A DNA stretch of 60,633 nt, filler included, from 4 parts of 4 records of this genome joined end to end with filler, not necessarily neighbours in it, one strand, 5' to 3'; positions 6,121-22,608 are shown, counted from the whole stretch's first letter. Notes: generated from the letters alone by a model not told the origin. Translations and numbers: made by a program.

Positions 6121-6294
6121 GCGTTTTCACCGTGACCTGTGGATGTGATGAGACAGGCTACGGATATTTCGTAAAGGCTGCGATTACAGGTTGCACACAG
6201 CGCGGTAACCTTGAAGCAAAGGGCGAGTTGATTATTTTACCTCCGCTCATCGCCAGGCCTTGTGGTTGCGCCATTCACACCGGCTATCCTTGGG

Positions 6295-6329
6295 TTGCCA
6301 ACACAGTTATCCACAGATTCTGTGGGAAA
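6295..6329 (-). promoter_or_regulatory. DnaA-box trio (DARS-core-like)
   Basis: Minus strand TTTCCCACA-5bp-TGTGGATAA-3bp-TGTTGGCAA; perfect box TTATCCACA at 6307-6315. Confidence 0.55.
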
Positions 6330-6518
6330 ACTCTTTGCTGATTGATCATTGTTTCGGTGGTTGTGGAGAATGTTATTGAAACCATAACTCGGCGCTTTCA
6401 AGGCGTAGTCAACGCTAAGGTCGCAAAGCGGACATTCAGATTTGGGGATAACTCCCGGCTCACGCGCCGCCTCCACGCCTATTCCAGACCGATTCGCGCC
6501 GTTAGCACCGAAACAAAA

Positions 6519-6552
6519 ATGTCACACCGCTGACACATTTCAGGACCACTCT
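6519..6552 (+). promoter_or_regulatory. Pho-box-like promoter of pyruvate-kinase-like operon
   Basis: ATGTCAC-accg-CTGACAC (6519-6536), 10 bp, -10-like CACTCT (6547-6552); extra half site CCGAAAC 11 bp upstream. Confidence 0.55.
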
Positions 6553-6609
6553 ATTACTGTATGGAATTTAGTCAGCCTCGCATCGAAAACATTCCGCGCA
6601 TGAAGCTTC

Positions 6610-8511
6610 ATGCAGCAGGGGAGGCCAGAAATGGACGAAATAATCCCGAGAGCCCTCACTGCATCAGAGATTGAGTACATGGGTGAGCTACTGGAAGATC
6701 TCACCAATCTTCGAGATCGCCTTTGCTCTATGGCTGCCCAACCCCCATTTAGCCTCAACGAACTCGACTCTGGCTATCGTATAAGCGCCGAAAACCTTCT
6801 GCATTACCTCGCGTTGCGCCGACAGGATATCCGACTGCTCCAGCAGCGCCTTGTTACGCTTGGATTTTCCTCATTGGGTCGTTCGGAATCCTGCGTACTG
6901 CCGACACTAGACGTCATCATCCGCACACTTTCCTTACTACTCGGACAGTCACTAAAAGCAGATTGCGGCGAAACTTCCACGATCACGATTCAGGATGGCG
7001 CCCGGTTACTGCTGCAGCATTCGAAAGAACTACTTGGGGCCACGCCCGAAGCTAGAAACGTACGGATAATGGTCACCATGCCAACGGAATCGGCACAAGA
7101 TCCCTCAATCATTCGCGATTTGCTGAAAGCCGGGATGAATTGCATGCGTATAAATTGCGCCCATGATGACCCAGAAACCTGGCTGGAGATGATCAATAAT
7201 CTGCAAACTGCAAAAGAGGAGTTCGGACAGAGTTGTCAGATTTTTATGGATTTGGGTGGGCCGAAGATACGCACGGGTGAGATCGAACCCGGACCGCACG
7301 TTGTGCATGTACGCCCCAAACGTAATGAATACGGAATCACCGTTTTCCCTGCGCGCATACTGCTGGTGCCGGAGGGAAGTTCAGCACCGGAAATTAGCGA
7401 TAACCAGACTGTTTTCGGTGTTCCAAAGAGTTTTCTACAAAAGCTCAAGAGATTTGATGAGATCCGGCTCCTTGATGCACGCCACAAGTCCCGGAAATGG
7501 ACTGTTGTTGAAGTTTGCGACTTTGGATGCCGGGTTGAGAGCATCAAAACATGTTACGTAGTGCCCGGAACGCCTCTTGAGCTGAAAGAAAAACAACGCC
7601 CGAAAATCACAGCCAAGATTACCAGTGTCCTCAAGCAACCCGGGTTTATAGTCCTCCGCCAAGGAGATTGTCTTTTAGTTACGGCCGACTCGAATGCCGG
7701 ACATTCCAAGCATTTAGACACCCAGGGAAATCTTGTTACTCCCGCTACGATAAGCTGCACGATGCCCGAGGTCGTTTCTCAAGTTCATCCGGGCGAGAGC
7801 GTCTGGTTTGATGACGGGAAAATTGGTGGTGTCATTGAAAAAGTAGAGACAGACCGATTCTGGGTAAAAATCCAACACGCTCGTCCAGAAGGCAGCAAAC
7901 TTAGAGCCGGTAAAGGCATGAACCTTCCGAATAGCCAGCTTAACGTCAGCTCTCTGACGCCGACCGACATCAGCCACCTGACATTCATCGCTAAGCATGC
8001 AGATGCCGTCCAGATGTCATTTGTAAACTCCGCACATGACGTCACATTGCTTGACGAAGCACTGTCCCGGGTAAAGGGGGATCACTTAGGCATCGTCCTC
8101 AAGATCGAAACCCGAAGAGGATTTGAGAATTTGCCCTCTATGCTGCTGACCGCTATGCGCCGACCCAAGGTGGGCGTCATGATTGCAAGGGGCGATCTTG
8201 CTGTTGACTGTGGATATGAGCGACTGGCAGAAGTCCAGGAAGAGATATTGTCAGTGTGTGAAGCCGCCCATGTACCCGTTATCTGGGCGACTCAAGTACT
8301 AGAAAACCTGGCTCAGAAAGGCATGCCCTCTCGCGCAGAGATTTCAGATGCAGTCATGGCGCACCGTGCAGAGTGCGTCATGCTGAACAAAGGGCCGCAC
8401 GTTATCGAAGCGCTTGGTGCGCTCGACAGCATTCTCAAGCGCATGGAACAGCATCAAACCAAAAAACGGGCACTACTCAGGGCACTGAGATTGGCCCAGA
8501 ACGGACGGTAA
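6610..8511 (+). CDS. pyk: atypical long pyruvate kinase (N-terminal extension, enlarged B domain, no C-terminal allosteric domain)
   Basis: RINCAHD, DLGGPKIRTG, FDDGKI, KGMNLP, LKIET, IARGDL, WATQVL, SRAEISD, CVMLNKG; start may be 6631. Confidence 0.85.
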   Translation: MQQGRPEMDEIIPRALTASEIEYMGELLEDLTNLRDRLCSMAAQPPFSLNELDSGYRISAENLLHYLALRRQDIRLLQQRLVTLGFSSLGRSESCVLPTLDVIIRTLSLLLGQSLKADCGETSTITIQDGARLLLQHSKELLGATPEARNVRIMVTMPTESAQDPSIIRDLLKAGMNCMRINCAHDDPETWLEMINNLQTAKEEFGQSCQIFMDLGGPKIRTGEIEPGPHVVHVRPKRNEYGITVFPARILLVPEGSSAPEISDNQTVFGVPKSFLQKLKRFDEIRLLDARHKSRKWTVVEVCDFGCRVESIKTCYVVPGTPLELKEKQRPKITAKITSVLKQPGFIVLRQGDCLLVTADSNAGHSKHLDTQGNLVTPATISCTMPEVVSQVHPGESVWFDDGKIGGVIEKVETDRFWVKIQHARPEGSKLRAGKGMNLPNSQLNVSSLTPTDISHLTFIAKHADAVQMSFVNSAHDVTLLDEALSRVKGDHLGIVLKIETRRGFENLPSMLLTAMRRPKVGVMIARGDLAVDCGYERLAEVQEEILSVCEAAHVPVIWATQVLENLAQKGMPSRAEISDAVMAHRAECVMLNKGPHVIEALGALDSILKRMEQHQTKKRALLRALRLAQNGR

Positions 8512-8514
8512 CAA

Positions 8515-9686
8515 GTGGATACCGATGAAGGATTGCTAGCCAGCTATCTAAAACGGAAGTTGTCTGCCCATGAAGCGGTCGAGACCATCTCAGGCTGCAG
8601 AAACCTGATTCTCGGAATGAGCGCCGCGCAACCGCCGGCATTGATGGCAGCCACTGCAGATGCCCTCAGAGATCGATTGATTGGTCCGTTAAATGTCTAT
8701 TATCTGCATGGTACGGAACATCTTCAGCAAACTCTTTTAGCTCCAGATCTCATTGATCTCGTAACACCCCGTCCACTCTTTCTAAGCCATTCAGACAGGG
8801 CTGCCATTGCACAATCCAACTCTATAAATTGGATTGAATTCGTACCCGCAATGCTTCACCAGGCCGGCCGCCTGCTGACAGAGCACATAGATCCGGAATG
8901 TTTTTTTGTGACCGTATCGCCGATGGATCGCCATGGATATTTCAGCCTCGTCACCAACGCTGATTACGGAGCGTCTGTGATCCGAAAAGCAAGGAAAGTC
9001 ATTGTCGAGGTCAACCGGTATATGCCTCGAACCTTTGGTGAATGTTCCGTCCATATTTCAGAAATAGACCACATCGTTGAGCACGATCAACCGCTGGTAG
9101 AGGCAATCCCCAAGGCGCCCACAGAGGTCGATAGAAAGATTGCGCAACAGATCATCGAACGGATTGGCGATGGGGACACCTTACAGATCGGAGTGGGCGG
9201 AGTACCAAATGCCGTGCTCTCTACGAGTTCCTTGACGATAACCCTGCTATCGTTGGATACCCCGCTTCCTGGGTAAACAACCCCGACATCATTCGGCTAA
9301 ACGACAACATGGTGTCTGTAAATTCAGCACTCGAAATAGATCTGACTGGCCAGATCAATTCTGAACAAATTGGCGATCGCCCCTTTTCTGGCACCGGTGG
9401 CCAACTTGATTTTGTTCGTGGTGCTTACGCCGCAAGAAACGGGCGCTCCTTCATTGCATTAAGGTCAACCGCTCAATCGGACTCTGTAAGCCGTATCGTC
9501 CCGCGTCTACTCGGCGGTGCCGTCACAGACCCCCGGAATGATGTGCAATTCGTAGTGACTGAGTATGGCTGCGTAAACCTTAAAGGCCTCTCTATCCCTC
9601 AAAGAGCCAGAGCCCTCATCCAAATTGCATCTCCTGAATTTCAAGATCATCTTGAACGAGAGGCAACGTCACTTGGATGGATATAG
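8515..9686 (+). pseudogene. acetyl-CoA hydrolase / 4-hydroxybutyrate CoA-transferase family, internal deletion with frameshift
   Basis: N-part ends at DGDTLQIGVGGVPNAVL (~9220); another frame from 9219 reads LYEFLDDNPAIVGYPASWVNNP...VNSALEIDLTGQ..SGTGGQLDF; the intervening segment typical of the family is missing. Confidence 0.85.
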
Positions 9687-9733
9687 GCACTATAGATCGG
9701 ATCACTGAAATCAGAGCGCTGGATAATGCCAAC

Positions 9734-10615
9734 CTAGTTGTTTAGAACAGCCTCAATCGCGCGGTAATCATCATAGGTCACGAGGTTTATCCCCACCGCT
9801 CGCTGAGTATTCAGGTATTCCGAGAGCATTGGCGAAGGCGTTGTCAGTAGATTAATGACCCGGCTCCGAACGTCCTCGCAAATTCCACTGCGGAATACAA
9901 AAGGGTCATAGTGTAACGGTACCGAACGCCAGAGAACCGTTAGGGTGTCCTCTGCAATCATGCCGCGCCTGAGCGCTTCATCTGCTCTTGAGCTGGAGAC
10001 AAAGGCAGCCTCCGCCTTGTTGTCCAGCAACGCCATCAATGCCTTGTCATGGCTACCCGCGTATATGTTGGCTCCAAAGAAATCGGAGAATGGCTCGCCG
10101 ATCGTGGTTGCAAACTCGTTTTTGGGAATGAGAGCCCCTGATGTACTGGAAGGATCTGTCAGCAGTATCCTGGTATTTCTCAGGTCCTCAATGCTGTTTA
10201 TCCCCGCTGCCGTTGGAACTACCAGTAGCGAATAATAGAAACTCCCCTCGGGTGTAAAGAGCCCGGCCTCGGTGGTTAGAGAAGCGAAGGCATCCAGACC
10301 CGGGTCTGTTCGATGGGCGATAACATAGGATGCCGGCCCCATAACGGCCAGGTCGACACCGCCCGAGAGTACACCGTCCATCACGCTCTCGTAAGAGGTG
10401 GCTCTAACCAGTTCTACCGGCATCCCAAGCCCCTGCTCTAGCAGCGTAATCAACGGCTGATATTCAGAGGCCTGCTGGTCGATATCTTTTTTTGGGATCA
10501 TCGTGAAGGTCAATCTGTTCATGTTGCAGTTTTTGACCTCTCGGACGGCTCCCGAACTATAAAACGATGCAAAGGCGAGCGATGCGAACGCGAGAATTAA
10601 CGTCAGCAACCTCAT
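9734..10615 (-). CDS. orphan phosphate/phosphite/phosphonate ABC substrate-binding protein (PhnD family)
   Basis: Signal peptide; DLAVMGPASYV, DPSSTSG and GSHDKA motifs; ATGA overlap with upstream GGDEF-EAL gene; no permease in this operon. Confidence 0.85.
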   Translation of the reverse strand: MRLLTLILAFASLAFASFYSSGAVREVKNCNMNRLTFTMIPKKDIDQQASEYQPLITLLEQGLGMPVELVRATSYESVMDGVLSGGVDLAVMGPASYVIAHRTDPGLDAFASLTTEAGLFTPEGSFYYSLLVVPTAAGINSIEDLRNTRILLTDPSSTSGALIPKNEFATTIGEPFSDFFGANIYAGSHDKALMALLDNKAEAAFVSSSRADEALRRGMIAEDTLTVLWRSVPLHYDPFVFRSGICEDVRSRVINLLTTPSPMLSEYLNTQRAVGINLVTYDDYRAIEAVLNN

Positions 10616-12936
10616 GCTCTGGCTTCCTCTTCTGCGAAGGTTCTCAGGAACTCAGGAATCTTCTCCGCTGGTATGGGGCGCCCCAGGTGATAGCCCTGTG
10701 CAATGTCACAGCCGGCGACTTTCAGGTGAACCAGCTGCTCACGGGTTTCCACGCCCTCGGCCACCACTTTGAGCGCCATGCGCTTGGCCAGAATAATGGT
10801 CGAGGACACGATCGGACTGTCATCATGGCTGTTTGAGATGCGGTTAATCAGGCTTCGGTCAATCTTGAGCTTGTCTACCGGTACCGCCTCCAGGTGGGCA
10901 AACCCCGCGTAACCGGTGCCGAAATCGTCAATACTGAGGCGGATACCTGCCGCCTTGAGGCAATGCAGGCTCTCAACTGCCCGGCCTTCCAGCATAGCAG
11001 TTTCCGTGATTTCCAGTTCCAGCAAGTCGGTGGTCAAACCGTAGTCCGCCAACGTCGCCAGAACGTCTTTGCAGAAACCCGGCTGAGCAAGCTGTATCGG
11101 AGAAACATTGACTGCGACTGGCTTCGAAATCCCATGTTTCTGTTGCCAGTCGGATATCTGGGCACAGGCCAGTCGAACCACTTCCATGCCCAGGGACACG
11201 ACAAAGCCGGTTTTCTCGGCCACCGGAATAAATCGGTCTGGATACAGCAGGCCGAAGCCCGGATGTTGCCATCGCACCAGAGCCTCGTAGCCAATAATTT
11301 CCATAGTCTCCAGGCAAACCTGGGGTTGGTAATGCAGAATAAACTCCCGGTTTTTGAGGGCCTCTACAAAGGCTTGTTCCAGGTGAAATTCTTCCACATC
11401 ACTCACATTCAGTGACTGGTCGAAAAACCGGTACTGGCCACGGCCAGCTTTCTTGGCCGAATACATAGCGGCATCAGCACATTTGGTCAGTTCATCAATA
11501 CTCTGGCCGTCCCGAGGGCTGATGGCGATACCAATGCTAGGACTGGTATTCAGCTCTGTTCCTTCCAACATGTAGGGGGCGGACAAATGCGCGGTTAAAG
11601 CTGCGGCCCACTGCTCGATGTCGGCCTCACTGCGATCACCCACCAACAGCACTACAAATTCATCACCGCCGAAACGAGCGGCAATATCACCTTTGTCCAG
11701 CATGCGTTGAATGCGACCGGCTACGGCCTGCAGTAGCAGGTCACCGATGTGGTGGCCAAGAGAATCATTAATGGATTTAAAGCGATCCAGATCGATAAAC
11801 AGCATGGTTGACAGCTTCCGCTGTCGACGCTGTTCCAGTACCAGCGAATCTGCCACATCCAGAAACTGGCGACGGTTGAACAGACCACTGAGATGATCAA
11901 TCGAAGCGGCACGGCTACTGCGGGCATGCTCGGTTTCAAGGCGCTCAATCAGTTGCTGGTTGTTCCGCTCGGACAACCGCAATGCCTCCAACACTCTTTG
12001 CTGCCCGGTCAAACTCCGGATCAGCCAGAACACAATACCGAAAACCAGTAAGGTCATTACGCTGTTGGCAATCAGTTGCTTATTCTGGCCAGGCGTAAGC
12101 GGTGCAAAGATCTCGTAGTAAGGCTGGGCCACACTGACTGTAAAACCATTCGCTGGACGGGTCACGAAAACATATTGGTATTGCTCGCCCGCCAACTCCA
12201 CCGTGGCTTCGCCGGTCACAACACGGCCTTCAGCCGCAATCTGCACTTTTGGCACCTGAGGCCCTCCAACCACAATGCCGCTTTCATTGGCCCGCATCCA
12301 CTCATCCCCCCTGGAATCCAGAATCTGAATAAAGCCCGAGCCCAGCTCAACATTCTGTAGAAGCCCAGCCAGGTAGGCGATGTCCAGCTCAATCAAGATC
12401 AATCTTGAGGAGCGGGACAAATCTGCCAGTCTGAGTGGAACCAGGAATGGCAATCGCCAGGCAGGCTCTTGTGGCACGTAAGCCGGATCCGCAACTCGTT
12501 CGGGAAGCACAGGCACAAATCCAGCTCCGGCAAAGTGGTCTTCAGTTCCAGACAACCAACTACCAAGGTTTGAGCGTGCCGAACCCAGATGGCTGGTGTA
12601 AATCAGTTCTCCCGACAGATTGTAAACACTGAGCCGGTTGAACACGGGATCTTCTGCCAGAAGCGTCAAGAGCCTGGTTTCTGCTTCTTGATGCGCGATG
12701 ACATCGTCATTCACCAGGCTTCCCATGGCCTTGGCTCGATCAGTCATCTGCTTGAGGCTCTCCGACACAATCAATGCCAGATTGCGGTTCTCGGAGAGTC
12801 TTGCATTGAGGGTTTCCGCCCTCGTTGCAGATGCCTGCCAAAGGAATAACACCCAGAGAAACAATACGATAACAACCCCGAGTGCCAGCATGGTTAGCTG
12901 AACGCTATTCAGGGGAGTATCAAATTTCGATGTCAT
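10612..12936 (-). CDS. membrane diguanylate cyclase/phosphodiesterase (TM-periplasmic Cache-like-TM-GGDEF-EAL)
   Basis: DLDRFKSINDSLGH, RFGGDEF, YEALVRW, DDFGTGY, AEGVE all intact; two TM segments flank a ~280-aa periplasmic region; ATG 12936 preferred over 13068. Confidence 0.92.
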   Translation of the reverse strand: MTSKFDTPLNSVQLTMLALGVVIVLFLWVLFLWQASATRAETLNARLSENRNLALIVSESLKQMTDRAKAMGSLVNDDVIAHQEAETRLLTLLAEDPVFNRLSVYNLSGELIYTSHLGSARSNLGSWLSGTEDHFAGAGFVPVLPERVADPAYVPQEPAWRLPFLVPLRLADLSRSSRLILIELDIAYLAGLLQNVELGSGFIQILDSRGDEWMRANESGIVVGGPQVPKVQIAAEGRVVTGEATVELAGEQYQYVFVTRPANGFTVSVAQPYYEIFAPLTPGQNKQLIANSVMTLLVFGIVFWLIRSLTGQQRVLEALRLSERNNQQLIERLETEHARSSRAASIDHLSGLFNRRQFLDVADSLVLEQRRQRKLSTMLFIDLDRFKSINDSLGHHIGDLLLQAVAGRIQRMLDKGDIAARFGGDEFVVLLVGDRSEADIEQWAAALTAHLSAPYMLEGTELNTSPSIGIAISPRDGQSIDELTKCADAAMYSAKKAGRGQYRFFDQSLNVSDVEEFHLEQAFVEALKNREFILHYQPQVCLETMEIIGYEALVRWQHPGFGLLYPDRFIPVAEKTGFVVSLGMEVVRLACAQISDWQQKHGISKPVAVNVSPIQLAQPGFCKDVLATLADYGLTTDLLELEITETAMLEGRAVESLHCLKAAGIRLSIDDFGTGYAGFAHLEAVPVDKLKIDRSLINRISNSHDDSPIVSSTIILAKRMALKVVAEGVETREQLVHLKVAGCDIAQGYHLGRPIPAEKIPEFLRTFAEEEARA

Positions 12937-13045
12937 CAAGCTAGAACCTGGAGAAAAGGGATAGGTAAACGTCAGCCTCTCCAGTGGCCGGATAAATCCT
13001 GTGAGTCGGGTGAGGCATTTCGCCAGCAAAACCCAGATCTCTCGA

Positions 13046-13079
13046 AGCCTAGACGTCAATTGTGGCAATTACATGACAG
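13046..13079 (-). promoter_or_regulatory. Pho box promoter of GGDEF-EAL/PhnD operon
   Basis: Minus strand CTGTCAT-gtaa-TTGCCAC (13079-13062), exactly 10 bp, -10 TAGGCT (13051-13046). Confidence 0.75.
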
Positions 13080-13095
13080 GCCGAAATTGTTAGCG

Positions 13096-13140
13096 GGTTC
13101 ACGCTTTTGACACAGGAACTTCATTTCTCAATGTTAAGTG
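13096..13140 (+). promoter_or_regulatory. Pho-box-like array for beta-helix gene
   Basis: GGTTCAC-gctt-TTGACAC-agga-ACTTCAT at 11-bp period; weak -10 (TAAGTG at 13135). Confidence 0.4.
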
Positions 13141-13170
13141 CACGGCCCCATCCATAACGGAGCAGCAGTA

Positions 13171-14454
13171 ATGTCCGGCCAATCATCCCTCCTGGTAGAA
13201 AAGCTCTGGCGCCTTAAACGCCGCATCGACAAAGGCCAATGCCCCGGTGTCGACTTTATTCATCTGAACGTCCTGCTTAGAGAGCCTGCTTATCGGGCGG
13301 ATGTTCTCAGGCGCGTGGAAACAAACGGCTCGCCCGAACTCCAGGCGCTTGCCCGGGAAATTATGGCAAACGATCCCGGTGAGCCGCTGATGGCGAAGTC
13401 TCCCACGGAAACACTGGCGAAAACTTCAGCTGACAAGGCGCAACGACGTAGCTGGCTTACTCGTAATGCTATAGTCGTCATTCCCATATCGGTGGCCTTT
13501 GTGGCAGCGATTGCCGGTTTTACCGCTCTTGAGAATCGAGCTGTCCGGGTCGCTGACGATATTGTCTCTGATACCGTTTGGCAAAGTGGCCGTCGCTATA
13601 TTCTGGATGACGTTATCTATGTGGATAGCGCCAGGCTCACCATAGAACCGGGCGTAACCATCGAAGGCGAACGCGGTTCTGCTCGGCAAAGCGCCGGTTA
13701 ATCAGCCCGACGCGGCAATAGAGGGTGTTCCCGAGACAGATCTCCGTGGCCAGTTTGGAGGTGCCGGCCAGCGCCACAGTTGCGGCGTACTGCAGTATAC
13801 CCGCATCGAATTTGCTGGCTTTGAGGTCTACAAAGACAACGAACTGAATGGTCTTACGCTGGGTGGTTGCGGCTCGGACACCATCGTCGAAAACGTGCAG
13901 GTACATCGCGCGCTGGACGATGGCATTGAGATGTTCGGTGGTACCGTAGATCTGAAAAACCTTCTGGTAACCGGCGCCGGCCGCTCGGCCAAACAGCACC
14001 GTGCCATGGTTCTGCGAGAAGGTTCCGGTGGCCATTTCCACAACATGATCATCGACAGCTTTGCCATCGAGGCCATCGATACGCGGGATGAGGTCAGGTC
14101 ACTCGTGGCGATGGAAAACTCACCTTTAGCCACAACCTTATCGCCAACAATGGCCGTCTCGGCAATCTGACAACAGAACCTGAGGCTGACGACGATGATT
14201 TTGGCTTCCAGGAAGAAGTGTGGATTCAGGACCCGGCCAACCGCAATCATCAGCTGGCGGAAAGTGGCTTGCAGCCAACCGTGACAAGCACGAATTCACC
14301 GAATTTCCGCTCCAGAGGCCTTATTCGAAATATGGAAACAATACGACCACTCAAGTCGGAGTTTTTCGACGAATCTGCTGACTACCTGGGCGCTATTAAT
14401 CCTCGCTCCAGTGACACCTGGCTGGATGGCTGGACTGCGTTTCCGGAGTCATAA
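13171..14454 (+). pseudogene. membrane-anchored right-handed beta-helix protein, broken into three frames
   Basis: LTIEPGVTIEGERGSA | VLLGKAPVN...CGVLQYTRIEFAG..NELNGLTLGGCGSDT..VQVHRALDDGIEMFGGTV..TGAG | DGKLTFSHN...DYLGAI..WLDGWT; frame changes near 13676 and 14110; probable in-frame deletion near 13975. Confidence 0.8.
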
Positions 14455-14577
14455 AGAATAGTCGTCCGTGCGTCTATGGTTAGCCAAGGATGGCGTCGTC
14501 AGAAATGTGGATGAGTTGGTAGCAGGGCGAGCTTGAGCTGAGGAGTACAAGGATTCCAGGTTATGCCTCTGCAATGG

Positions 14578-14611
14578 TTGTCACAAAAATATCATCAAAC
14601 AAGCTTACGGT
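14578..14611 (+). promoter_or_regulatory. Pho box promoter of phnDCEE-HAD operon
   Basis: TTGTCAC-aaaa-ATATCAT (14578-14595), 10 bp, -10 TACGGT (14606-14611); SD GAGGAG before ATG 14651. Confidence 0.75.
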
Positions 14612-14650
14612 TGACTCAGAGACATTACTAAGGATCTGAGGAGACAAACA

Positions 14651-15598
14651 ATGAAAAAGCTTCTGACCCTGGCGTGTGCCACCATGCTCACACCGGTATT
14701 GGCCCATGGTGCATTCCAGCTCGACAGCCGTTACCAGGACAACGACGGCGACCTGATTGCTGACATCCCCTCTGACGAGTCAAAACTGGTGGATCCCTCA
14801 ACCCTGGTCTTTGCCTATACCCCGGTGGAAGATCCGGCTGTTTATAAGGAAGTCTGGTCCGAGTTTCTCGACCACCTGGCAGAAACCACTGGCAAGAATG
14901 TCCAGTTTTTCCCGGTACAATCCAACGCAGCGCAGATCGAAGCCATGCGTGCGGGTCGTCTGCATATCGCCGGCTTTAATACCGGTTCCAACCCGCTGGC
15001 CGTCGCCTGTGCTGGCTTCCGCCCATTTACCATGATGGCAGCGGCCGATGGCTCCTTTGGCTATGAAATGGAAATCATCAGCTACCCCGGCTCTGGTGTG
15101 AATGATGTGGAAGACATCCGTGGTGGCGAGCTTGCGTTCACGTCGCAGACATCCAATTCCGGCTTCAAGGCTCCCTCTGCCATTCTCAAGGCGGATTACA
15201 ACATGATCGCCGGTGAGGATTTCGAGCCGGTGTTCTCCGGCAAGCACGACAACTCCATTCTCGGTGTTGCCAACAAGGACTACAAAGCCGCAGCCGTTGC
15301 AAACTCGGTGCTCAACCGCATGCTCAGCCGGGATGTGGTTAGCGAAGACCAGATTGTCAGTCTCTACAAGTCCCAGACTTTCCCCACCACGGGTTACGGC
15401 ATCGCCCACAACCTGACGCCTGAACTGCAGGAAAAAATCCAGAACGCATTCTTCTCCTTCGACTGGGAAGGCACTGCGCTGGAAGAAGAGTTCTCGAAAT
15501 CCGGTGAAGCCCAGTTCGTGCCCATCACCTTCAAGAACCACTGGGAAGTGATTCGTAAAATCGATGCAGCTAACGGTGTTGCGTACAACTGTCGTTAA
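14651..15598 (+). CDS. phnD: phosphate/phosphite/phosphonate ABC transporter substrate-binding protein
   Basis: Signal peptide, AQIEAMRAGRLHIAGF, TSNSG, GKHDNS; first gene of a phnCE-type operon. Confidence 0.88.
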   Translation: MKKLLTLACATMLTPVLAHGAFQLDSRYQDNDGDLIADIPSDESKLVDPSTLVFAYTPVEDPAVYKEVWSEFLDHLAETTGKNVQFFPVQSNAAQIEAMRAGRLHIAGFNTGSNPLAVACAGFRPFTMMAAADGSFGYEMEIISYPGSGVNDVEDIRGGELAFTSQTSNSGFKAPSAILKADYNMIAGEDFEPVFSGKHDNSILGVANKDYKAAAVANSVLNRMLSRDVVSEDQIVSLYKSQTFPTTGYGIAHNLTPELQEKIQNAFFSFDWEGTALEEEFSKSGEAQFVPITFKNHWEVIRKIDAANGVAYNCR

Positions 15599-15616
15599 CA
15601 GGCCGGGCGGTACCAA

Positions 15617-16435
15617 GTGCTGAAACTGGACAAGGTTTCGAAAACCTACAAGACCGGCGACAAGGCCCTCCACAACGCCTGCTTTGAAGTTCCGGCAGGC
15701 CAGGTGGTGGGCTTGATCGGGCCTTCAGGGGCGGGAAAATCCACCCTTATTCGCTGCATCAATCGACTGGTGGAGCCCACTCAGGGCTCAATCACTCTGG
15801 GCGACACCGAGCTTACCGGGTTGAATCGTCGGGAGCTGCGTCGCGCCCGGCGCCGGATCGGCATGATCTTCCAGGAATACGCTCTGGTGGAGCGCCTGAC
15901 CGTGATGGAAAACGTGTTGTCTGGTCGGCTGGGCTATGTGCCAGCGTGGCGCTCTTACCTGCGAAAATTCAGCCCGGATGATATCGCACAGGCCTTCTCC
16001 CTGCTGGACCGGGTCGGCCTTGCCGATCATTACAACAAACGGGCGGATGCGCTCTCCGGTGGCCAGCGCCAGCGGGTGGGCATTGCCAGGGCGCTGGAGC
16101 AGAACCCGGAACTGCTGCTGGTGGATGAACCCACAGCTTCCCTCGATCCGAAGACTTCCCGGCAGATCATGCGGCTGATTCGCACCGCCTGTCAGGAGCG
16201 CAACCTGCCCGCAATCATCAACATTCACGATGTGATGCTCGCCCAACAGTTCTCGGACCGGATTATCGGCCTGAAGGCTGGCGAAATCGTGTTCGACGGC
16301 GCGCCGGATGCTCTCACCGACGAGGTGTTGACCACCATCTACGGGGATGAAGACTGGACCCAGCTGCGTGGTGACAACGGCGAACAGTCCACGGATCCGG
16401 AAGCCCCGGCGGTCGATCTTGCGGAGGGGATGTAA
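15617..16435 (+). CDS. phnC: phosphonate-type ABC transporter ATPase
   Basis: [52 protein letters not shown]. Confidence 0.93.
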
Positions 16436-17254
16436 ATGGCTCTAGAGCCAGTGGCCCAATCCTATCCGACCCGCTGGAAACGACCTCCGGTATTGCTGAC
16501 TCATCCCCTGTGGCGGAAGATCATCCTGCTTGGCGGCCTCGTGTACCTGGTGCTGGCCATACAGACCGTTGAAGTCGACTGGCAGCGGGTTTATCTGGGG
16601 CTGGAGCGCGGCTGGCGATTCGTTCAGGGCTTTCTGGTTCCGGACTTCACGTCGCGCTGGAACGACATCTACGCCGGCCTTATGGAAAGCCTGACCATGA
16701 CCGTGACGTCCACGGTGGCTGGCATCCTGATTTCCGTTCCTATTGGCATTGGCGCGGCCCGCAACCTGGCGCCGGCTCCGGTATACCTGGCCTGCCGCGG
16801 CATTATTACCGTTTCCCGATCCTTTCAGGAAGTGATCATTGCCATCCTGCTGGTCGCCATGTTCGGATTTGGTCCCTTTGCAGGGTTTCTGACCCTGGCC
16901 TTCGCCACCATCGGCTTCCTTTCCAAACTGCTGGCTGAGGAAATTGAAGACTGCGACCGTAGCCAGATTGAGGCTATCCGGGCCACTGGGGCCAGCTGGT
17001 GGCAGGTGGTCAATTACGCGGTTCAACCCCAGGTCATGCCCCGTCTGGTTGGGCTGTCCCTCTATCGGCTGGACATCAACTTCCGGGAATCCGCGGTGAT
17101 TGGCATTGTCGGCGCCGGCGGTATCGGGGCGACCCTAAACACTGCTATCGACCGTTACGAGTATGACTCGGCAGGGGCCGTCCTGATCATCATCATCGCC
17201 ATTGTTCTGGTGGTGGAATACTCGTCCTCATACATCCGCAGGTGGGTACAGTGA
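16436..17254 (+). CDS. phnE: phosphonate-type ABC transporter permease
   Basis: EAIRATGAS, LYRLDINFRESAVIGIVGAGGIG signature. Confidence 0.93.
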   Translation: MALEPVAQSYPTRWKRPPVLLTHPLWRKIILLGGLVYLVLAIQTVEVDWQRVYLGLERGWRFVQGFLVPDFTSRWNDIYAGLMESLTMTVTSTVAGILISVPIGIGAARNLAPAPVYLACRGIITVSRSFQEVIIAILLVAMFGFGPFAGFLTLAFATIGFLSKLLAEEIEDCDRSQIEAIRATGASWWQVVNYAVQPQVMPRLVGLSLYRLDINFRESAVIGIVGAGGIGATLNTAIDRYEYDSAGAVLIIIIAIVLVVEYSSSYIRRWVQ

Positions 17255-18066
17255 ACACTCAGGTTCCCGGGGCACAATCATCCTGGCAGTTCCGGACTCC
17301 GAAGCAGACCCTGCTGCGCTGGGTCGGTTGGTTCTGGCTTGTTGTCCTTACCGTTTTCTGCTGGCAGGTCATGAATGAGAATACCATCTGGGCCTTTGTC
17401 AGTGATGCGCCGGACCAGGCCGCCGACATCGGCGACCGAATGTTCCCACCGGCCTGGAGTTACATTAACAATCTCTGGGAGCCACTTTGGGACACCATCA
17501 ACATTGCCACCCTTGGCACCTTGCTGGGCATTCTGATCGCAGTGCCTGTCGCGTTTCTGGCAGCCACCAACACCACCCCCAGTACCCGATTCGTGAGACC
17601 GCTGGCGCTTTTGATTATTGTCGCCTCCCGTTCCATCAATTCTCTGATCTGGGCTCTCCTGCTGGTAGCGATTATTGGTCCCGGTCTGCTCGCGGGCATC
17701 GTCGCGATCGGCCTGCGGTCCATCGGGTTTATTGCCAAACTTCTGTATGAGGCGATTGAAGAGATCGACGATAAACAGGTGGAAGCGGTGCGCGCCACCG
17801 GAGCCTCGGGGGCCCAGGTGATCGATTACGCGGTGGTGCCACAGATTCTGCCGGCGTTCTGGGGCATCAGTGTGTTCCGATGGGACATCAACATCCGGGA
17901 ATCGACCATTCTCGGGCTCGTGGGCGCTGGCGGGCTCGGGATTCAGCTCAACGCCTCGCTGAGCACCCTGGCCTGGAATCAGGTGGCTATGATCTTCATT
18001 GTGATTCTCGGGACCGTCGTGATCTCGGAATGGGTTTCCGCAAAGGTTCGTGAGGCGGTACTCTGA
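17251..18066 (+). CDS. phnE: second phosphonate-type ABC transporter permease
   Basis: EAVRATGAS, FRWDINIRESTILGLVGAGGLG; GTGA overlap with previous gene. Confidence 0.93.
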   Translation: MNTQVPGAQSSWQFRTPKQTLLRWVGWFWLVVLTVFCWQVMNENTIWAFVSDAPDQAADIGDRMFPPAWSYINNLWEPLWDTINIATLGTLLGILIAVPVAFLAATNTTPSTRFVRPLALLIIVASRSINSLIWALLLVAIIGPGLLAGIVAIGLRSIGFIAKLLYEAIEEIDDKQVEAVRATGASGAQVIDYAVVPQILPAFWGISVFRWDINIRESTILGLVGAGGLGIQLNASLSTLAWNQVAMIFIVILGTVVISEWVSAKVREAVL

Positions 18067-18070
18067 GCCG

Positions 18071-19018
18071 ATGATCGATACCCACCCGATTTCCTTTGCT
18101 GGCCTGACGCCTTCCCCTGCCTGGGCGTTCGCCGAATATCAGCGTATCCGCAAGACTCTGCCTGCCGGCCTGCCGCCGGAACAGGCTCCCTGCGCCCGGG
18201 AACTGGAAACACTCGAACCTCTTCTCGACCATTTCCAGGTGTTTGTATTCGACGCCTTTGGCGTGCTGAACGCAGGCCCCCGGGCCTTTCCTTCAGCCAT
18301 AAGCCGGATCAGACAGCTCCAGCAACGGGGCAAGACCGTCAGGATCCTCTCCAACGCAGCCACTGCCAGCCACAGCGCGCTTGTCGCGAAGTACCGGGGT
18401 ATGGGTTTCGATATCGGGCATGATCAACTGATTTCCAGCCGTTCGGTGCTTGAGCAGTCGTTATCTCGCCAACTCCGCAAAGGCCGGTTCGGTGTCCTTT
18501 CACCCGCATCATCCGCTCCGGATACTCTGGGGGTAGACTGGCTGCCGGTCCGGCCGGGTATTCAGACAGGGGATCTGAACCGGCTGGATGGTTTTATCTT
18601 CCTGAGTAGTGAAGGCTGGAATGAAGAGGTTCAGGAAGCGCTGGCCAAGAGCCTGGCGCGCCACCCGCGCCCGCTGCTCGTGGCCAATCCCGACCTGGTC
18701 GCCCCCAGAGGCGATTGCCTGACTCTGGAACCCGGTTACTTCGCGCACCTGTTGATGGGCCAGTCCGCCATAGAGCCGGAGTTTTTCGGCAAGCCGTATC
18801 GACCCGCATTTGATTCAGTACTGGAAACGCTGAAAGGCGTTGACCCGGTCGATGTGCTGATGGTGGGTGACACACTGCATACAGACATTCTGGGCGGCCA
18901 GGCCGCAGGCATGAAAACCATGCTGATAACAGCAGAAGGCGCCTTGCAGGGCATGAACATTCCAGACTGCATTTCGCAGTCTGGAATTGTGCCGGACTTT
19001 ATCGCTCCGATGATTTGA
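18071..19018 (+). CDS. HAD-superfamily subfamily IIA hydrolase with non-canonical motif I (DAFGV)
   Basis: FVFDAFGVL, ILSNA, ANPDL, FGKP, MVGDTLHTDILGG; ATG 4 bp after phnE stop. Confidence 0.88.
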   Translation: MIDTHPISFAGLTPSPAWAFAEYQRIRKTLPAGLPPEQAPCARELETLEPLLDHFQVFVFDAFGVLNAGPRAFPSAISRIRQLQQRGKTVRILSNAATASHSALVAKYRGMGFDIGHDQLISSRSVLEQSLSRQLRKGRFGVLSPASSAPDTLGVDWLPVRPGIQTGDLNRLDGFIFLSSEGWNEEVQEALAKSLARHPRPLLVANPDLVAPRGDCLTLEPGYFAHLLMGQSAIEPEFFGKPYRPAFDSVLETLKGVDPVDVLMVGDTLHTDILGGQAAGMKTMLITAEGALQGMNIPDCISQSGIVPDFIAPMI

Positions 19019-19159
19019 GGTCGTTCAATCAGGAGGGAAACCGGTTCCGGGTGCGGCGCATCAGCATGAGCGGAACTGTCACCAGCACGCCAACCGCCGA
19101 AGCCTGATCGACCTGGACACGGTCAGGCGCTGTCGTCCTGGCAACCAGCGATGAACCAT

Positions 19160-19191
19160 AAAAAAGCCCTACACGGAGGTAGGGCTTCTTT
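19160..19191. terminator. bidirectional intrinsic terminator
   Basis: AAAAAAGCCCTAC-acggag-GTAGGGCTTCTTT between convergent HAD and Lys-rich genes. Confidence 0.8.
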
Positions 19192-19251
19192 ACGTATAGC
19201 TAGCAACAAAGTATCCGGACTCTTACCGGATACGGCGCGCTATATGGCAGT

Positions 19252-19377
19252 TTATGCCGCTTTCTTGAGCTTCTTTTTCAGGCTCTTCAGCTTGCCTTCC
19301 TGCTTGGCGATCTTCGCCTTACGGGCTTTGATTTCTTTTTTCAGGCTGGTTACTTTCTTCGTAGTTTTCTTGGCCAT
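19252..19377 (-). CDS. 41-aa lysine-rich small protein (absent from ORF track)
   Basis: MAKKTTKKVTSLKKEIKARKAKIAKQEGKLKSLKKKLKKAA; SD AGGAG 6 nt upstream of ATG; downstream hairpin 19211-19233 and terminator. Confidence 0.8.
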   Translation of the reverse strand: MAKKTTKKVTSLKKEIKARKAKIAKQEGKLKSLKKKLKKAA

Positions 19378-19414
19378 GATTCACTCCTGGTGTGTGATTG
19401 CTCGATTACCGCCC

Positions 19415-19615
19415 TCAGTCGTCCTTATGGGTTCGCACGAAGTTGCGTATGAACTTTCGTACCTCTCTGGCGGCACTGGTATCCAGCTCTTCACACAATG
19501 AAATGAATTCATCGCGCTCTGCACTGTTGATCCGAATCAGTAGCTGAGAGTCTTTTTTCCCTGCCTTTTTCTTGCGTGGCTTCAACTGCTTTTCGGAAAT
19601 ACTATCGGCTGCCAT
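19415..19615 (-). CDS. small ribbon-helix-helix-like DNA-binding protein
   Basis: Basic N-tail, then SQLLIRIN (strand), AERDEFISLCEEL (helix), SAAREVRKFIRNFV (helix). Confidence 0.65.
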   Translation of the reverse strand: MAADSISEKQLKPRKKKAGKKDSQLLIRINSAERDEFISLCEELDTSAAREVRKFIRNFVRTHKDD

Positions 19616-19645
19616 GGGTCATCCACTCACTGAGAACACTTTTAG

Positions 19646-19662
19646 TATATACATTGTATATA
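19646..19662. promoter_or_regulatory. palindromic operator over the RHH-gene promoter
   Basis: Perfect inverted repeat TATATACA-t-TGTATATA overlapping minus-strand -10 TATACT (19649-19644). Confidence 0.6.
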
Positions 19663-19696
19663 GAAAAGATAGACTCAGGCGCCCAAGGTGTCGCAG

Positions 19697-19939
19697 TCAG
19701 ATGTCGTGTTGCTTTCGAAAGCTGTTGATCTCTTCCACGACTTTGCGGGCGACTGTGTAGTGATCCAGGCGATCAAAAAGCCTTCTAAGAATTTCCTTTT
19801 CTTTGTCGTCGACTACGCCGTCTTCCAAAGCTAATCGCTCGATCATGGCGAGCTCTTTTTCGTCTATGGTGTCGTCGTTGGCGAAGACCACCAGGAAGGA
19901 ATACCCCACTAGTTCTTTTGCCCGTGATTTCTCTGTCAT
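19697..19939 (-). CDS. small acidic TerB-like hypothetical protein
   Basis: ANDDTIDEKE and EDGVVDDKEKE motifs resemble the repeated DG-x-x-D-x-x-E motif of the TerB fold. Confidence 0.55.
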   Translation of the reverse strand: MTEKSRAKELVGYSFLVVFANDDTIDEKELAMIERLALEDGVVDDKEKEILRRLFDRLDHYTVARKVVEEINSFRKQHDI

Positions 19940-19960
19940 AACGTCACCCTATCTGATGCG

Positions 19961-20185
19961 TCATAAATGCCCAGCAGGCAACGCCAAGAGCATTTCCAGG
20001 TATCGCCTGGCTGCATATTCGCTTTCCGATTGATACAGCGGTTCCTCACCAGGTATGCGTACCTCGTATCGAAAGGGTCGGCAAAAGCCGCTCGGCTCTT
20101 TGAAGCTTAGCTCAAGAAGTTCAACCGGTAGTTCTTCACAGGACCAGCAACAACGAATTTCAACGGCTTGGATAGCCTTACTCAT
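19961..20185 (-). CDS. hypothetical protein (74 aa)
   Basis: ORF MSKAIQAVEIRCCWSCEE...; lies downstream of a Pho-like promoter. Confidence 0.55.
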   Translation of the reverse strand: MSKAIQAVEIRCCWSCEELPVELLELSFKEPSGFCRPFRYEVRIPGEEPLYQSESEYAARRYLEMLLALPAGHL

Positions 20186-20294
20186 ACCAGACACATATGC
20201 CCCCAGGTGGATCAGTTGCACTACAAAAGCAACAGAGGGCTCATCCTGAGCAGTACACGCGGATTGCGTTCCGCCTCATCTAGGCGGTGACGGA

Positions 20295-20328
20295 ATTAAA
20301 GCAAGGTGATGTTGCGATGGCGTGACGG
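20295..20328 (-). promoter_or_regulatory. Pho-box-like promoter
   Basis: Minus strand CCGTCAC-gcca-TCGCAAC (20328-20311), 10 bp, -10 TTTAAT (20300-20295). Confidence 0.55.
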
Positions 20329-20332
20329 GGAT

Positions 20333-20392
20333 AAAAAAACCGAGCCCCGGGACAGGGACTCGGCAAACAATCATGATCCTAATCCTGATTGG
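20333..20392 (-). ncRNA. candidate ~60-nt sRNA 1
   Basis: Promoter CTGAAAT-gaaa-TTGAAAC (20432-20415), 10 bp, TACGAT (20404-20399); ends in GC hairpin 20340-20363 plus T7; contains two AGGA motifs. Confidence 0.5.
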
Positions 20393-20447
20393 CCGACAAT
20401 CGTAACCTTCAGCTGTTTCAATTTCATTTCAGGAGAACAGGGTTCAT

Positions 20448-20915
20448 TCACCAATCCTTTTTCTGCTTGAGGAGCTCATTGTTGTAGGGACCAATGGTTT
20501 CGAGCAAAACGGATGATCTTGAAAACTGGCCTCGCCCCCAGGCAATGTCATTTTGCCATTCGTCCTTCAACGCCGATTCAATGGTCCACTGCTTCAGGGA
20601 TGAATAAACAAGCCGCGCCTGTGCCGTAACACGGCTTTCTGTCAGGTTCTGGAATGGGAAGAATTCAAACTTGTCGCACTGAACCAGAAGGGTCGTCTCA
20701 AGAGTACCCGCTGCCAAAAACGACGCATCATAGAGTAGCTGGAAAATGATGGACTCTTTCACTGTGCCCAATGGAGAGCAGGAAAAGGCGTTGAGACGAA
20801 CTGACAGGGAACACTGGCTATCTTCCAGTTCAATGTGCGGCCTCATCCATGGGCCTACGAACGTAGATCTGTGAAACGCCAATAGGGCTCGGTAGTGGTC
20901 CTCTCTGGGGTTCAT
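20448..20915 (-). CDS. PaaI-like hotdog-fold protein (divergent thioesterase)
   Basis: GTVKESIIFQLLYDASFLAA in place of G-x-x-HGG-x-x-x-x-L-x-D; C-terminal IAWGRGQF strand. Confidence 0.6.
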   Translation of the reverse strand: MNPREDHYRALLAFHRSTFVGPWMRPHIELEDSQCSLSVRLNAFSCSPLGTVKESIIFQLLYDASFLAAGTLETTLLVQCDKFEFFPFQNLTESRVTAQARLVYSSLKQWTIESALKDEWQNDIAWGRGQFSRSSVLLETIGPYNNELLKQKKDW

Positions 20916-20970
20916 TTCATTAACCTCAGATCGGGACTGTCAACGTCCTTTTGAACAGACCTTGGGGGAG

Positions 20971-21033
20971 GAAAAACGCCGGGGTTGAACCCCCGGCAAT
21001 GCGAGAGCACCTGGTACTTATCGTACTTCAGGA
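20971..21033 (-). ncRNA. candidate ~63-nt sRNA 2
   Basis: Promoter CTGAAAT-tcgg-TTATAAC (21073-21056), 10 bp, TATAGT (21045-21040); 5' hairpin CCTG-aa-GTAC/GTAC-CAGG; terminator GCCGGGG/CCCCGGC (20978-20997) plus T5. Confidence 0.5.
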
Positions 21034-21083
21034 ACCCTCACTATAGGGTTCTAACGTTATAACCGAATTTCAGGCTACGTTCC

Positions 21084-21341
21084 CTAAGAGACCTTGCGCC
21101 TTTCCCTCATGACCTTCCAGTCTATGACGTTTCCCGCAGAGTCGAAATGGACATAGCCGGCATAACCATCCGCTTCTTCCCAGGTTTTGATAAAGCCAAC
21201 AACCTCGCCGTTCTCTGTGCACATTTCGTAGGACGTTTTACTAGGGTCTATCTGGCGCGCTTGATCGACTTCAGGTTCGACCTCCCGGAGTGTCTGGTCT
21301 TTTTTGAGAGACAAGGTGGTTTCAATCCAATCGGAACTCAT
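21084..21341 (-). CDS. hypothetical protein (85 aa)
   Basis: Clean ORF with SD GAGGT; no family recognised. Confidence 0.65.
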   Translation of the reverse strand: MSSDWIETTLSLKKDQTLREVEPEVDQARQIDPSKTSYEMCTENGEVVGFIKTWEEADGYAGYVHFDSAGNVIDWKVMRERRKVS

Positions 21342-21477
21342 GGGGCACCTCTTTACTGGGTAAGGGACAGCACTTATCTGGCTGTTTATTTTATGCTCAA
21401 TTTAATCGGCTATTTTGATGTGTCTCAAGATGATTTTGGTCTTAAAAATTTATCTGAAATAGCCTGCATTCGGTTGC

Positions 21478-22260
21478 CTAGTAGCCCAGATAACCGTAGC
21501 CGACCGTATCCCGATATTTTTCAATGTGTCGTACATTGATTGCTCGGACAACGCCTTCTGCTTCAAGCTCACTGAAGCACGCATTGAATGCATCACGGTG
21601 TTCTTTTTTACGAAACGAGGCTCTATAGGGCGTCGGGGCAAAAATCGGAATGAACATGACCTTCTGGTGCAAATCAGCCTTATCCGCATAGGTTCGATCC
21701 GCGCGCAAACGGTGGTTAATCTCCGAAAAGATAAGACCATCCGCAAGCACCACATCCACGCGATTCAGAAAGAGCATTCGCGAGTGGATGCGCTGGTCTG
21801 CAAACTCGGAATATGAGGCAAAAAACTCAATGTGAGACTCAATACCCAGCAATTGGGACGCACCGGCAAAGGAAACAACACGCAGCCCTTTTAAATAGCG
21901 AAGATGGTAAGGCTTGATGTTCGTGGACTCCAAAACAGCGGCGCCATTCTGGTAATACACGTAGGGGGTGCTTTCAAAACCTGGTGTTTCCATATCGGGA
22001 GGCACGGTCATTACCGCATCGCCCAGCCCCTCATGAGTGAAATTCCGGAGGTGCCGTTTGAAGGGGTAGAAATGAAAGTGAACATCTATTTCACATCGAT
22101 CCATGACTGCAGCGAATATCTCAATATCGCGCCCAACCGGCCCCTGTTCTGATGTTGCCGGGAGGTAGGGGGCCAGTACGAGAAGTGGCTCTGGCTCTGA
22201 TACTGCATTGGCCTGAGTGGCCAAAGTGCCAATAGCGAACGCCAGAAGTAACCATTTCAT
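21478..22260 (-). CDS. orphan periplasmic substrate-binding protein (family 3, amino-acid type)
   Basis: Signal peptide; GRDIEIF, PFKR, RMLFLNRVDVV, RDAFNACFSELEAEG patterns. Confidence 0.8.
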   Translation of the reverse strand: MKWLLLAFAIGTLATQANAVSEPEPLLVLAPYLPATSEQGPVGRDIEIFAAVMDRCEIDVHFHFYPFKRHLRNFTHEGLGDAVMTVPPDMETPGFESTPYVYYQNGAAVLESTNIKPYHLRYLKGLRVVSFAGASQLLGIESHIEFFASYSEFADQRIHSRMLFLNRVDVVLADGLIFSEINHRLRADRTYADKADLHQKVMFIPIFAPTPYRASFRKKEHRDAFNACFSELEAEGVVRAINVRHIEKYRDTVGYGYLGY

Positions 22261-22347
22261 TTAGATGCCACGTGATTATCGAGAAACTACAACTACTTCC
22301 CTGCAACTAAACTCAAGGTTACCGCTAATTCCATTTCCAGAATCACG

Positions 22348-22381
22348 ATATTACTACATTAGTGTTTCAGCTCTGTGACAG
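22348..22381 (-). promoter_or_regulatory. Pho box promoter of orphan SBP gene
   Basis: Minus strand CTGTCAC-agag-CTGAAAC (22381-22364), 10 bp, -10 TAATAT (22353-22348). Confidence 0.7.
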
Positions 22382-22608
22382 TGACGCGCTCGCCTTGTTT
22401 ACCACACTGATGAATACCTGGCTGGTCACGGTTCTTATCGGTTCGTTCCGCAAAACCGACGGCCCCAACGTGTCCACAAAGTGTCAGCCGTGTTTAGCGT
22501 AGAGGCGCTGGAGGAAAGCCCTGAATGGAATGTTCGCTTTTGTTTAGGTTCGGACAATTTATGATTGCACTACCAAAAAAGACGATGAAATAGACGGTTC
22601 AACGGTTG

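Follow-up and report, generated by a model that had tools for sequence, protein, structure and literature searches.

A mobile, partly decaying island of Marinobacter as a putative accessory Pho regulon

Introduction

In Escherichia coli, low phosphate leads to phosphorylated PhoB, which binds 11-base head-to-tail repeats (PMC4563254, PMC4415409) and brings in sigma70 polymerase at a -10 element located 10 bases downstream (PMC1906773), the spacing being strict (PMC10294691). Here we describe an island in a 60,633-nt stretch of DNA, hereafter the window, in which eight intergenic sites share with the gammaproteobacterial Pho regulon a 7-4-7 repeat and, 10 bases beyond it, a -10-like hexamer. 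The island differs from the described regulon in carrying six to eight such promoters within 16 kb of mobile DNA. A sequence-only reading of the window had proposed that the adjacent genes, several of them not usually tied to phosphate limitation, form one clustered Pho regulon; our analysis supports this proposal with amendments, in that the geometry is identical to that of the genus's own pstS and phoB promoters and the boxes are kept in the same position in diverged relatives. The island is best read as a putative mobile, partly decaying accessory Pho regulon.

Several components have described counterparts. PhoB control of cyclic di-GMP (c-di-GMP) enzymes, phosphate-responsive small RNAs and receptors stimulated by binding proteins are already known (PMC12351708, PMC11522486 and PMC8050422, respectively). 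Pho-regulated c-di-GMP enzymes occur in V. cholerae (acgAB; PMC12351708) and in P. fluorescens Pf0-1 (title cited in PMC4415409); the island enzyme differs in being a membrane sensor protein paired with an orphan PhnD-family binding protein, whose gene follows it in 17 of 20 genomes. As in AioX-AioS, PstS-CtpL (PMC8050422) and ArrX, an orphan oxyanion-binding protein is encoded beside a membrane signalling protein, but the output of the island system would be c-di-GMP, and neither a kinase nor a chemoreceptor. PhoS of Bacillus (PMC11522486) and EsrL of E. coli (PMC12351708) are 60-70-nt RNAs of 3' regions with their own Pho-type promoter, like the two candidate RNAs of the island; PhoB binding at EsrL failed to reproduce in PMC10294691. 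The island candidates differ in having no Rfam match, in occurring two per locus, in mobile DNA of a gammaproteobacterium, and in their activating geometry. Mobile clusters of phosphate genes are known from arsenic/phosphate islands (PMC4563254), whereas the island has neither pst nor arsenic genes and is dominated by genes for carbon metabolism and signalling. Finally, PhoB does not occur in the main text of the paper on the glycerol-phosphate transporter GpxB (PMC12718374), whereas the corresponding island operon includes a HAD-IIA gene and is preceded by a Pho box that relatives keep.

A literature search, covering open-access papers and a minority of their supplements, found among the papers listed no report of a Marinobacter Pho regulon or of PhoB control of pyruvate kinase, nor PRK14725 pyruvate kinases, beta-helix or hot-dog proteins as listed Pho genes. 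The pyruvate kinase gene pyk is absent from the main text and readable supplements (file 1 excepted) of PMC4513871 and from the main text of PMC9769906, and has no relevant mention in PMC12889132.

Results

Eight promoter sites

The window consists of four contigs with N spacers; the eight sites and the island all lie in contig 1 (1-22710). This contig and genome G001 are 99% identical, and the island host is Marinobacter. Each site reads as a 7-4-7 repeat, 10 bases and a hexamer at the coordinate first given for it (Table 1). Because circularity had to be avoided, the scoring matrix (matrix A) was trained on the pstS and phoB promoters of the genus alone, with no island site included; in these promoters the box, the 10 bases and the -10-like hexamer are found at 30 of 30 pstS and 29 of 30 phoB loci. 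The scores of the eight sites run from 19.8 at 22381 to 3.4 at 13107, which had indeed been singled out as the weakest, and the top seven matches of contig 1 are the seven other sites.

As background we used 23 stretches of G001 (918,482 positions, both strands), which are mostly coding, have a G+C content (GC) above that of the island's gaps and somewhat flatter the result: 5 positions reach 14.0, 16 reach 12.6 and 1,458 reach 3.4. At this rate 0.17 sites of at least 14 are expected per 16 kb, and six are seen (P ~3e-8); for the score of 20328 the expectation is 0.56 sites. None of 272 control upstream regions scores 12.6. The boxes thus stand well above chance at six sites, whereas 20328 is marginal and 13107, by its own sequence, is at background. 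Identical geometry likewise holds for six of the eight, which have A2 and T6 in the hexamer, and not for 13107, which lacks T6, or 20328, which lacks A2; the spacer comparison is partly circular, as the sites had been picked by that spacing. A scan for consensus -35/-10 promoters found six, none of which is any of the eight sites, as expected for activator-dependent promoters.

A degenerate genome-wide pattern, composed after the sites were known, has 24 matches in G001, of which six fall in the island, whereas the reversed pattern used as control has 1; in five other genomes the numbers are 18-26 against 2-4. Further G001 matches precede pstS, phoB, phnS2, phnR, a PstS-OmpA fusion gene, hemB, a metallophosphoesterase gene, which we take to be PlcP-like, and the housekeeping pyk; several more precede unrelated genes or fall inside open reading frames (ORFs). 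For P. aeruginosa, hemB is among the genes tabulated for PhoB (PMC4513871, supplement 7). Strong boxes were also noted ahead of genes in G001 at L171:6331-6342 (-) and in L151, one of them an array of three half-sites.

Conservation of the boxes

Relatives were drawn from a set of 191 genomes. As the earlier reading would predict, the boxes recur at orthologous loci. The promoter of the GGDEF-EAL gene scores at least 12.8 in 19 of 19 evaluable orthologues, and that of the gpx operon at least 12.1 in 21 of 21 distinct loci. The island pyk promoter has an in-register pair of half-sites, by a pattern of our own, in 11 of 11 other Marinobacter loci, nine of which also have the same upstream AAAA spacer and a third half-site. 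A box of at least 11.8 stands upstream of 11 of 12 hot-dog loci, and the 20328 box is found in the same register in five of five other genomes, with scores of 2.0-12.0. The 22381 box is found in its two closest outside relatives (21.5 and 12.9) and reaches 10 in one of 25 more distant ones. Left out of these counts are, for GGDEF, G147 (contig end); for gpxB, L042 and L043 (faulty slicing) as well as two duplicates; for the binding protein, L417, which is short; and for the hot-dog gene, L402.

For the beta-helix gene, in the best 30 of 65 matches, 25 promoters score at least 8 at 60-70 bases upstream (controls, 0 of 277), and TA is present at +10 in 29 (controls, 20 of 277). Because 25 of the 30 orthologues keep the box and no copies score lower than those of G001 and G072, 13107 is a decayed copy of a conserved site; footprinting backs both 20328 and 13107 as positions.

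Table 1. Features of the island, in window coordinates, with matrix A scores for the boxes.
Feature	Position	Strand	Basis
Left island end, half of composite terminal element	6419..6437	+	G072 alignment starts at 6419; run X2/X3 contigs leave the window at 6437
pyk promoter	6508..6552	+	half-sites 6508, 6519, 6530 (11-base spacing), hexamer 6547-6552; score 14.0
Atypical pyruvate kinase, PRK14725	6610..8511	+	likely start 6631; NF011314 838 bits (cut-off 642)
Acetyl-CoA hydrolase/CoA-transferase, broken	8515..9686	+	154-base deletion at 10-base repeat (9212-9221); two Pfam halves
Orphan PhnD/PtxB-family binding protein	9734..10615	-	PF12974; directly behind GGDEF-EAL gene
Membrane GGDEF-EAL protein	10612..12936	-	Pfam; periplasmic sensor region; GGDEF, EAL, DDFGTG motifs intact
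Pho box and hexamer, GGDEF-EAL/binding-protein operon	13046..13079	-	score 19.5
Decayed beta-helix box	13107..13140	+	score 3.4, background level
Beta-helix membrane protein gene, broken	13171..14454	+	two short-repeat deletions (122 and 174 bases), probable 1-base loss
Pho box and hexamer, gpx operon	14578..14611	+	score 16.4
GpxB, glycerol-1-phosphate/glycerol-3-phosphate binding protein	14651..15598	+	3/315 residues differ from PDB 9LF9
ABC ATPase, two permeases, HAD-IIA hydrolase	15617..19018	+	TIGR02315, TIGR01097 above cut-off; TIGR01460 just above
41-aa lysine-rich ORF and 66-aa ORF	19252..19615	-	no family match; no Pho box
86-aa ORF and 80-aa TerB-like ORF	19697..20221	-	TerB E 0.0035, below cut-off
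Weak box and hexamer, 86-aa ORF	20295..20328	-	score 12.6
Candidate short RNA 2, ~60 nt, hairpin then terminator	20332..20392	-	fold z -4.47, terminator included
Box and hexamer, RNA 2	20399..20432	-	score 14.8
Hot-dog-fold, thioesterase-like protein, 155 aa	20448..20915	-	Atlas features 0.93, 4HBT clusters; no Pfam match
Candidate short RNA 1 (alternatively, attenuated hot-dog leader), ~62 nt	20970..21033	-	fold z -3.82, terminator included
Box and hexamer, RNA 1	21040..21073	-	score 17.0
85-aa ORF that stops shortly before the 21073 box	21084..21341	-	homologues in same place in G107, G129, G015, G168
Family 3-like solute-binding protein	21478..22260	-	PF00497 E 0.001, below cut-off
Hybrid box and hexamer, binding-protein gene	22348..22381	-	score 19.8
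Right island end, other half of terminal element	22505..22546	+	G072 alignment ends at 22546

Glycerol-phosphate transporter operon

The operon first labelled phnDCEE corresponds to the published GpxB transporter (PMC12718374), as judged by the near-identity of its binding protein to PDB 9LF9 and by the presence of all nine ligand residues (T111, G112, Y138, S168, N169, S170, H199, R223 and T247). GpxB binds glycerol-1- as well as glycerol-3-phosphate at 1-2 uM (PMC12718374; PDB 9LF9, 9LFB). Against the C-P lyase-type PhnD model TIGR03431 (cut-off 261.1 bits), the two binding proteins score 133.8 and 167.4 bits. A phosphonate/C-P lyase reading of the operon was rejected.

Pyruvate kinases and CoA-transferase

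The PRK14725 kinase shares the barrel motifs of the housekeeping enzyme and, as judged by the alignment, lacks the C-terminal regulatory domain; it has no close solved relative (best E 6e-36), and its activity is predicted. Its gene is present in 12 of the 191 genomes. The Pho link of pyk is not specific to the island, as the housekeeping gene is boxed too: in 22 of 29 evaluable loci (L348, too short, excluded) a box reaches 9.5 within 300 bases; among 272 controls, a score of 10 within 250 bases is seen in 6. In these 22 genomes the Pho-type box of the housekeeping promoter (L135, L340-L369) is conserved, and its hexamer is GAYAAT-like. The boxes predict direct PhoB control of both pyruvate kinase copies. 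At two Pseudomonas loci (L240:7767-10808 and L241) the PRK14725 kinase gene is convergent with ppk2, with a Pho-type box on each.

The coenzyme A (CoA)-transferase and beta-helix genes had been counted as members of the regulon; both are pseudogenes here, and in this lineage the two genes are dead. Their deletions (154, 122 and 174 bases) lie at repeats of 8-10 bases, here and in G001. Both genes are intact in G072, the CoA-transferase having 441 residues there, and the CoA-transferase junction is intact in an RNA contig of run X4. Contigs from RNA runs, in four sets, cover parts of the island and were used solely for this junction and the end junctions. In G132 (L296:10704) a separate Pho-type box for the CoA-transferase gene lies between that gene and pyk.

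GGDEF-EAL enzyme, orphan binding protein and beta-helix gene

The GGDEF-EAL gene occurs in 20 of the 191 genomes, and its G132 orthologue has a weak dCache_1 match below cut-off. The closest solved relatives of the orphan binding protein are PtxB and ArrX, and no phnE-like permease was found beside its gene in 13 long loci. A complex prediction for the periplasmic region of the GGDEF-EAL protein with the binding protein, run without alignments, gave 0.13 against a mark of 0.34 and counts neither way. The corresponding Pho-regulated enzyme of P. fluorescens Pf0-1 is presumably RapA. Atlas clusters of the beta-helix family carry PF28492, and in G132 a gene of the metallo-beta-lactamase fold follows the beta-helix gene.

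Island ends and gene orders

The island spans 6419-22546 and has at each end one half of a composite terminal element that occurs genus-wide. At the left end position G072 carries this element in full, with both arms, and it shares 6419-14611 and 19143-22546 with the window at 91-98% identity; a 48-base tRNA-Arg fragment lies 1.8 kb beyond its right end. Matches were found in 87 of the 191 genomes, most of them on the terminal element, whose halves are joined through short variable spacers in many genomes. A 204-residue tyrosine recombinase adjoins the element in G029; with this recombinase type as query, matches were found in two of five genomes, G001 and G072 not among them. A literature search with the terminal motif gave unrelated papers. 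The composite element, with its two arms and variable spacer, also bounds accessory-gene modules (L048:4820-4870; L051:545, 13750; L177-L202).

Genes of the island recur together in altered orders in G132, G129, G015, G023, G168, G038, G058, G135 and G107, and the recurring modules are often accompanied by a chemoreceptor gene and an EAL-GGDEF-CBS gene, both boxed. In G015, G023, G168 and G038 these form a divergent pair with a box on each side, next to a pyk or hot-dog module (L257:12620-16289, L273, L291, L433); the boxed chemoreceptor is possibly a phosphate chemoreceptor. Across genomes, pyk clearly co-occurs with hot-dog and with GGDEF, and co-occurrence in the four remaining pairs is weak.

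It is conceivable, if to our mind somewhat doubtful, that the boxes are real and their clustering incidental, i.e. that an insertion hot spot gathered separate Pho-regulated cassettes with no single coordinated adaptation behind them. The gpx operon would fit such an origin: its GC is 58.5%, against 52.7% and 48.9% (the latter in the right part of the island), it is missing in G072, where its box is left as an orphan, and it adjoins arsenic-type genes in G029. So would the beta-helix gene, present in 64 of the 191 genomes and mostly elsewhere, the two broken genes and the unboxed pair at 19252-19615. What argues for a coordinated kit is that the same parts adjoin in new orders (G132, G129, G023, G168, G038, G135, G107), that G132 carries the GGDEF, binding-protein, pyk, CoA-transferase, reductase, beta-helix and hot-dog genes, and that pyk and hot-dog occur together in 4 genomes against 0.5 expected, an expectation that ignores kinship although kin are not independent.

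In G001 a repeated intergenic stretch flanks the island on both sides (window 6228-6330; L011:17790 and 18508-18610) and contains a word that we assume to be DnaA-box-like. A short gene fragment at the contig end (window 22639-22710; L011:18338-18409) has a second copy in G001, some 1.6 kb farther along. Contigs 2-4 probably come from other genomes, because G001 has just 36% of the window's words; contig 2 (22811-29623; nlpD-like, tatC) has a higher GC and reads like another organism, and contig 3 has two matches of at least 12.5.

Right part of the island and candidate short RNAs

The 20328 box had been assigned to the hypothetical genes of the right part. It does front the 86-residue ORF, whose homologues, with those of the TerB-like ORF, are found in G107, G129, G117, G043 and G094, whereas the small genes at 19252-19615 have no box, have homologues near rpoD-like genes in G034 and G083, and are probably a separate unit. 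An AT-rich near-palindrome precedes the 66-residue ORF (19646-19662) and is perhaps an autoregulatory operator. A small hairpin with a GGA loop before the 86-residue ORF (20239-20251, -) is kept in all six aligned genomes and in our estimation resembles a CsrA/RsmA site. The 21073 box (21056-21073) differs at two bases from its G001 and G072 copies, which are nearer consensus (20.9 vs 17.0).

Both candidate RNAs have their own promoter, a 5' hairpin, an intrinsic terminator and positional conservation, and their terminators are the first two listed for the island. The layout of RNA 2 is the same in G107 and G117. RNA 1 has positional counterparts with an invariant 10-mer in six other genomes (G129, G015, G023, G168, G058 and G107); a DNA search with the G023 copy matched 6 of the 191 genomes, G001 not among them, and a search of contig 1 and eight related loci against Rfam gave nothing near the gathering score.

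Rather than free regulators, these elements might be leaders that attenuate the following gene or plain terminators of the preceding one, an alternative that we consider a minority possibility deserving real credence. Each lies right behind a stop codon and before a gene on the same strand, and no other promoter was found for the hot-dog gene; the window copy of RNA 1 lacks the 10-mer common to its six relatives, among which, with the window copy left out, 6 of 17 pairs show two-sided change and covariation is slight (term -0.75), and no Rfam match was obtained. On the other hand, a separate box and hexamer stand 60-70 bases ahead of each terminator, a promoter candidate of its own (20328) serves the gene that follows RNA 2, G015 keeps RNA 1 without the hot-dog gene, and a 10-mer that stays invariant while the rest of the copies diverges resembles a pairing seed.

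Identity of the regulator

PhoB is present in 35 of 36 genomes, and TIGR02154 is above cut-off in G001. Its effector domain matches PDB 1gxp with E 7e-42, and the recognition-helix segment of E. coli PhoB is common to both. The claim that the CTGAAAT-type boxes belong to the canonical regulator, made from the hybrid site at 22381, gains from two further promoters: that of the G001 PstS-OmpA gene mixes both types of half-site, and the promoter matching 20432 in G107 and G117 has canonical half-sites. An RNA-2-like element behind canonical half-sites in these two genomes is the strongest indication that boxes of the CTGAAAY type are sites for PhoB.

We regard it as improbable that the CTGAAAY/CTTCAY-type boxes (20432, 21073, pyk and beta-helix) serve another OmpR-family regulator with an 11-base repeat, leaving the canonical ones alone to PhoB. 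Such half-sites are not in the pstS/phoB training set, pure TGAAAY pairs are kept elsewhere in several genomes, and cross-regulation by TctD has been published for P. aeruginosa (PMC4513871). However, hybrid boxes exist at PstS-OmpA and 22381, orthologous promoters exchange variant and canonical half-sites (G107, G117, G068, G022), and CTTCAY is the second half-site of three gpxB promoters. A chance origin of the sites in AT-rich intergenic DNA, to which the 48.9% GC of the right part and the background score of 13107 would lend themselves, is hardly credible and was rejected on the background counts, control regions and footprints, which contradict it for six sites.

Discussion

Based on these observations, PhoB control of most island units appears likely. 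The after-the-fact pattern noted above nevertheless weighs against it, together with the following points: (i) the relatives come from one genus and are not independent samples; (ii) co-occurrence is clear in just two of six gene pairs; (iii) the island pyk boxes of relatives score 5.2-14.0, with hexamers that begin with G or C, and among relatives outside Marinobacter 8 of 40 loci reach 9, six of these being from Pseudomonas; (iv) 13107 is itself at background, its G072 equivalent scores 1.1 though the gene is intact, and most beta-helix hexamers lack the last T; (v) Phaeobacter GpxB is induced by its substrate (PMC12718374, section 5), and its locus tag is absent among the listed Pho table rows of PMC10132767; and (vi) many E. 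coli PhoB sites are inert (PMC10294691).

We propose the following mechanism, the inferred functions in it ranging from tentative to somewhat probable. At low phosphate, phosphorylated PhoB would switch on the island promoters, six strong, one weak and one decayed. GpxB would import glycerol phosphates, from which the HAD enzyme would release phosphate, and a phosphorus oxyanion, via the orphan binding protein, would tune the c-di-GMP switch. The pyruvate kinase without regulatory domain would move phosphate from phosphoenolpyruvate to ADP, the CoA-transferase, reductase (in relatives) and thioesterase steps would drain the carbon, and two short terminated RNAs would add regulation. The kit would travel between recombination-type ends and be reshuffled across the genus.

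In its most extended form, the proposal is that Marinobacter trade a modular kit through recombinase cassettes, in which PhoB drives an allostery-free pyruvate kinase and CoA-transfer/thioesterase steps that strip phosphate from carbon metabolites, an orphan PhnD-family protein informs a c-di-GMP enzyme of an external phosphorus oxyanion, and short RNAs of two families, activated by PhoB, supply post-transcriptional control, with PhoB control of pyruvate kinase genus-wide; taken whole, this is speculative and rather unlikely.

The finding, made from sequence alone, would extend a well-known regulon. The Pho regulon is usually read as serving phosphate scavenging, whereas the boxes predict that in a common marine genus PhoB also controls pyruvate kinase, in both copies, a binding-protein-coupled c-di-GMP enzyme and small RNAs. 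They would make GpxB, a newly described transporter, phosphate-controlled in gammaproteobacteria and may provide a first physiological context for the PRK14725 kinases and for a beta-helix family present in 64 of the 191 genomes.

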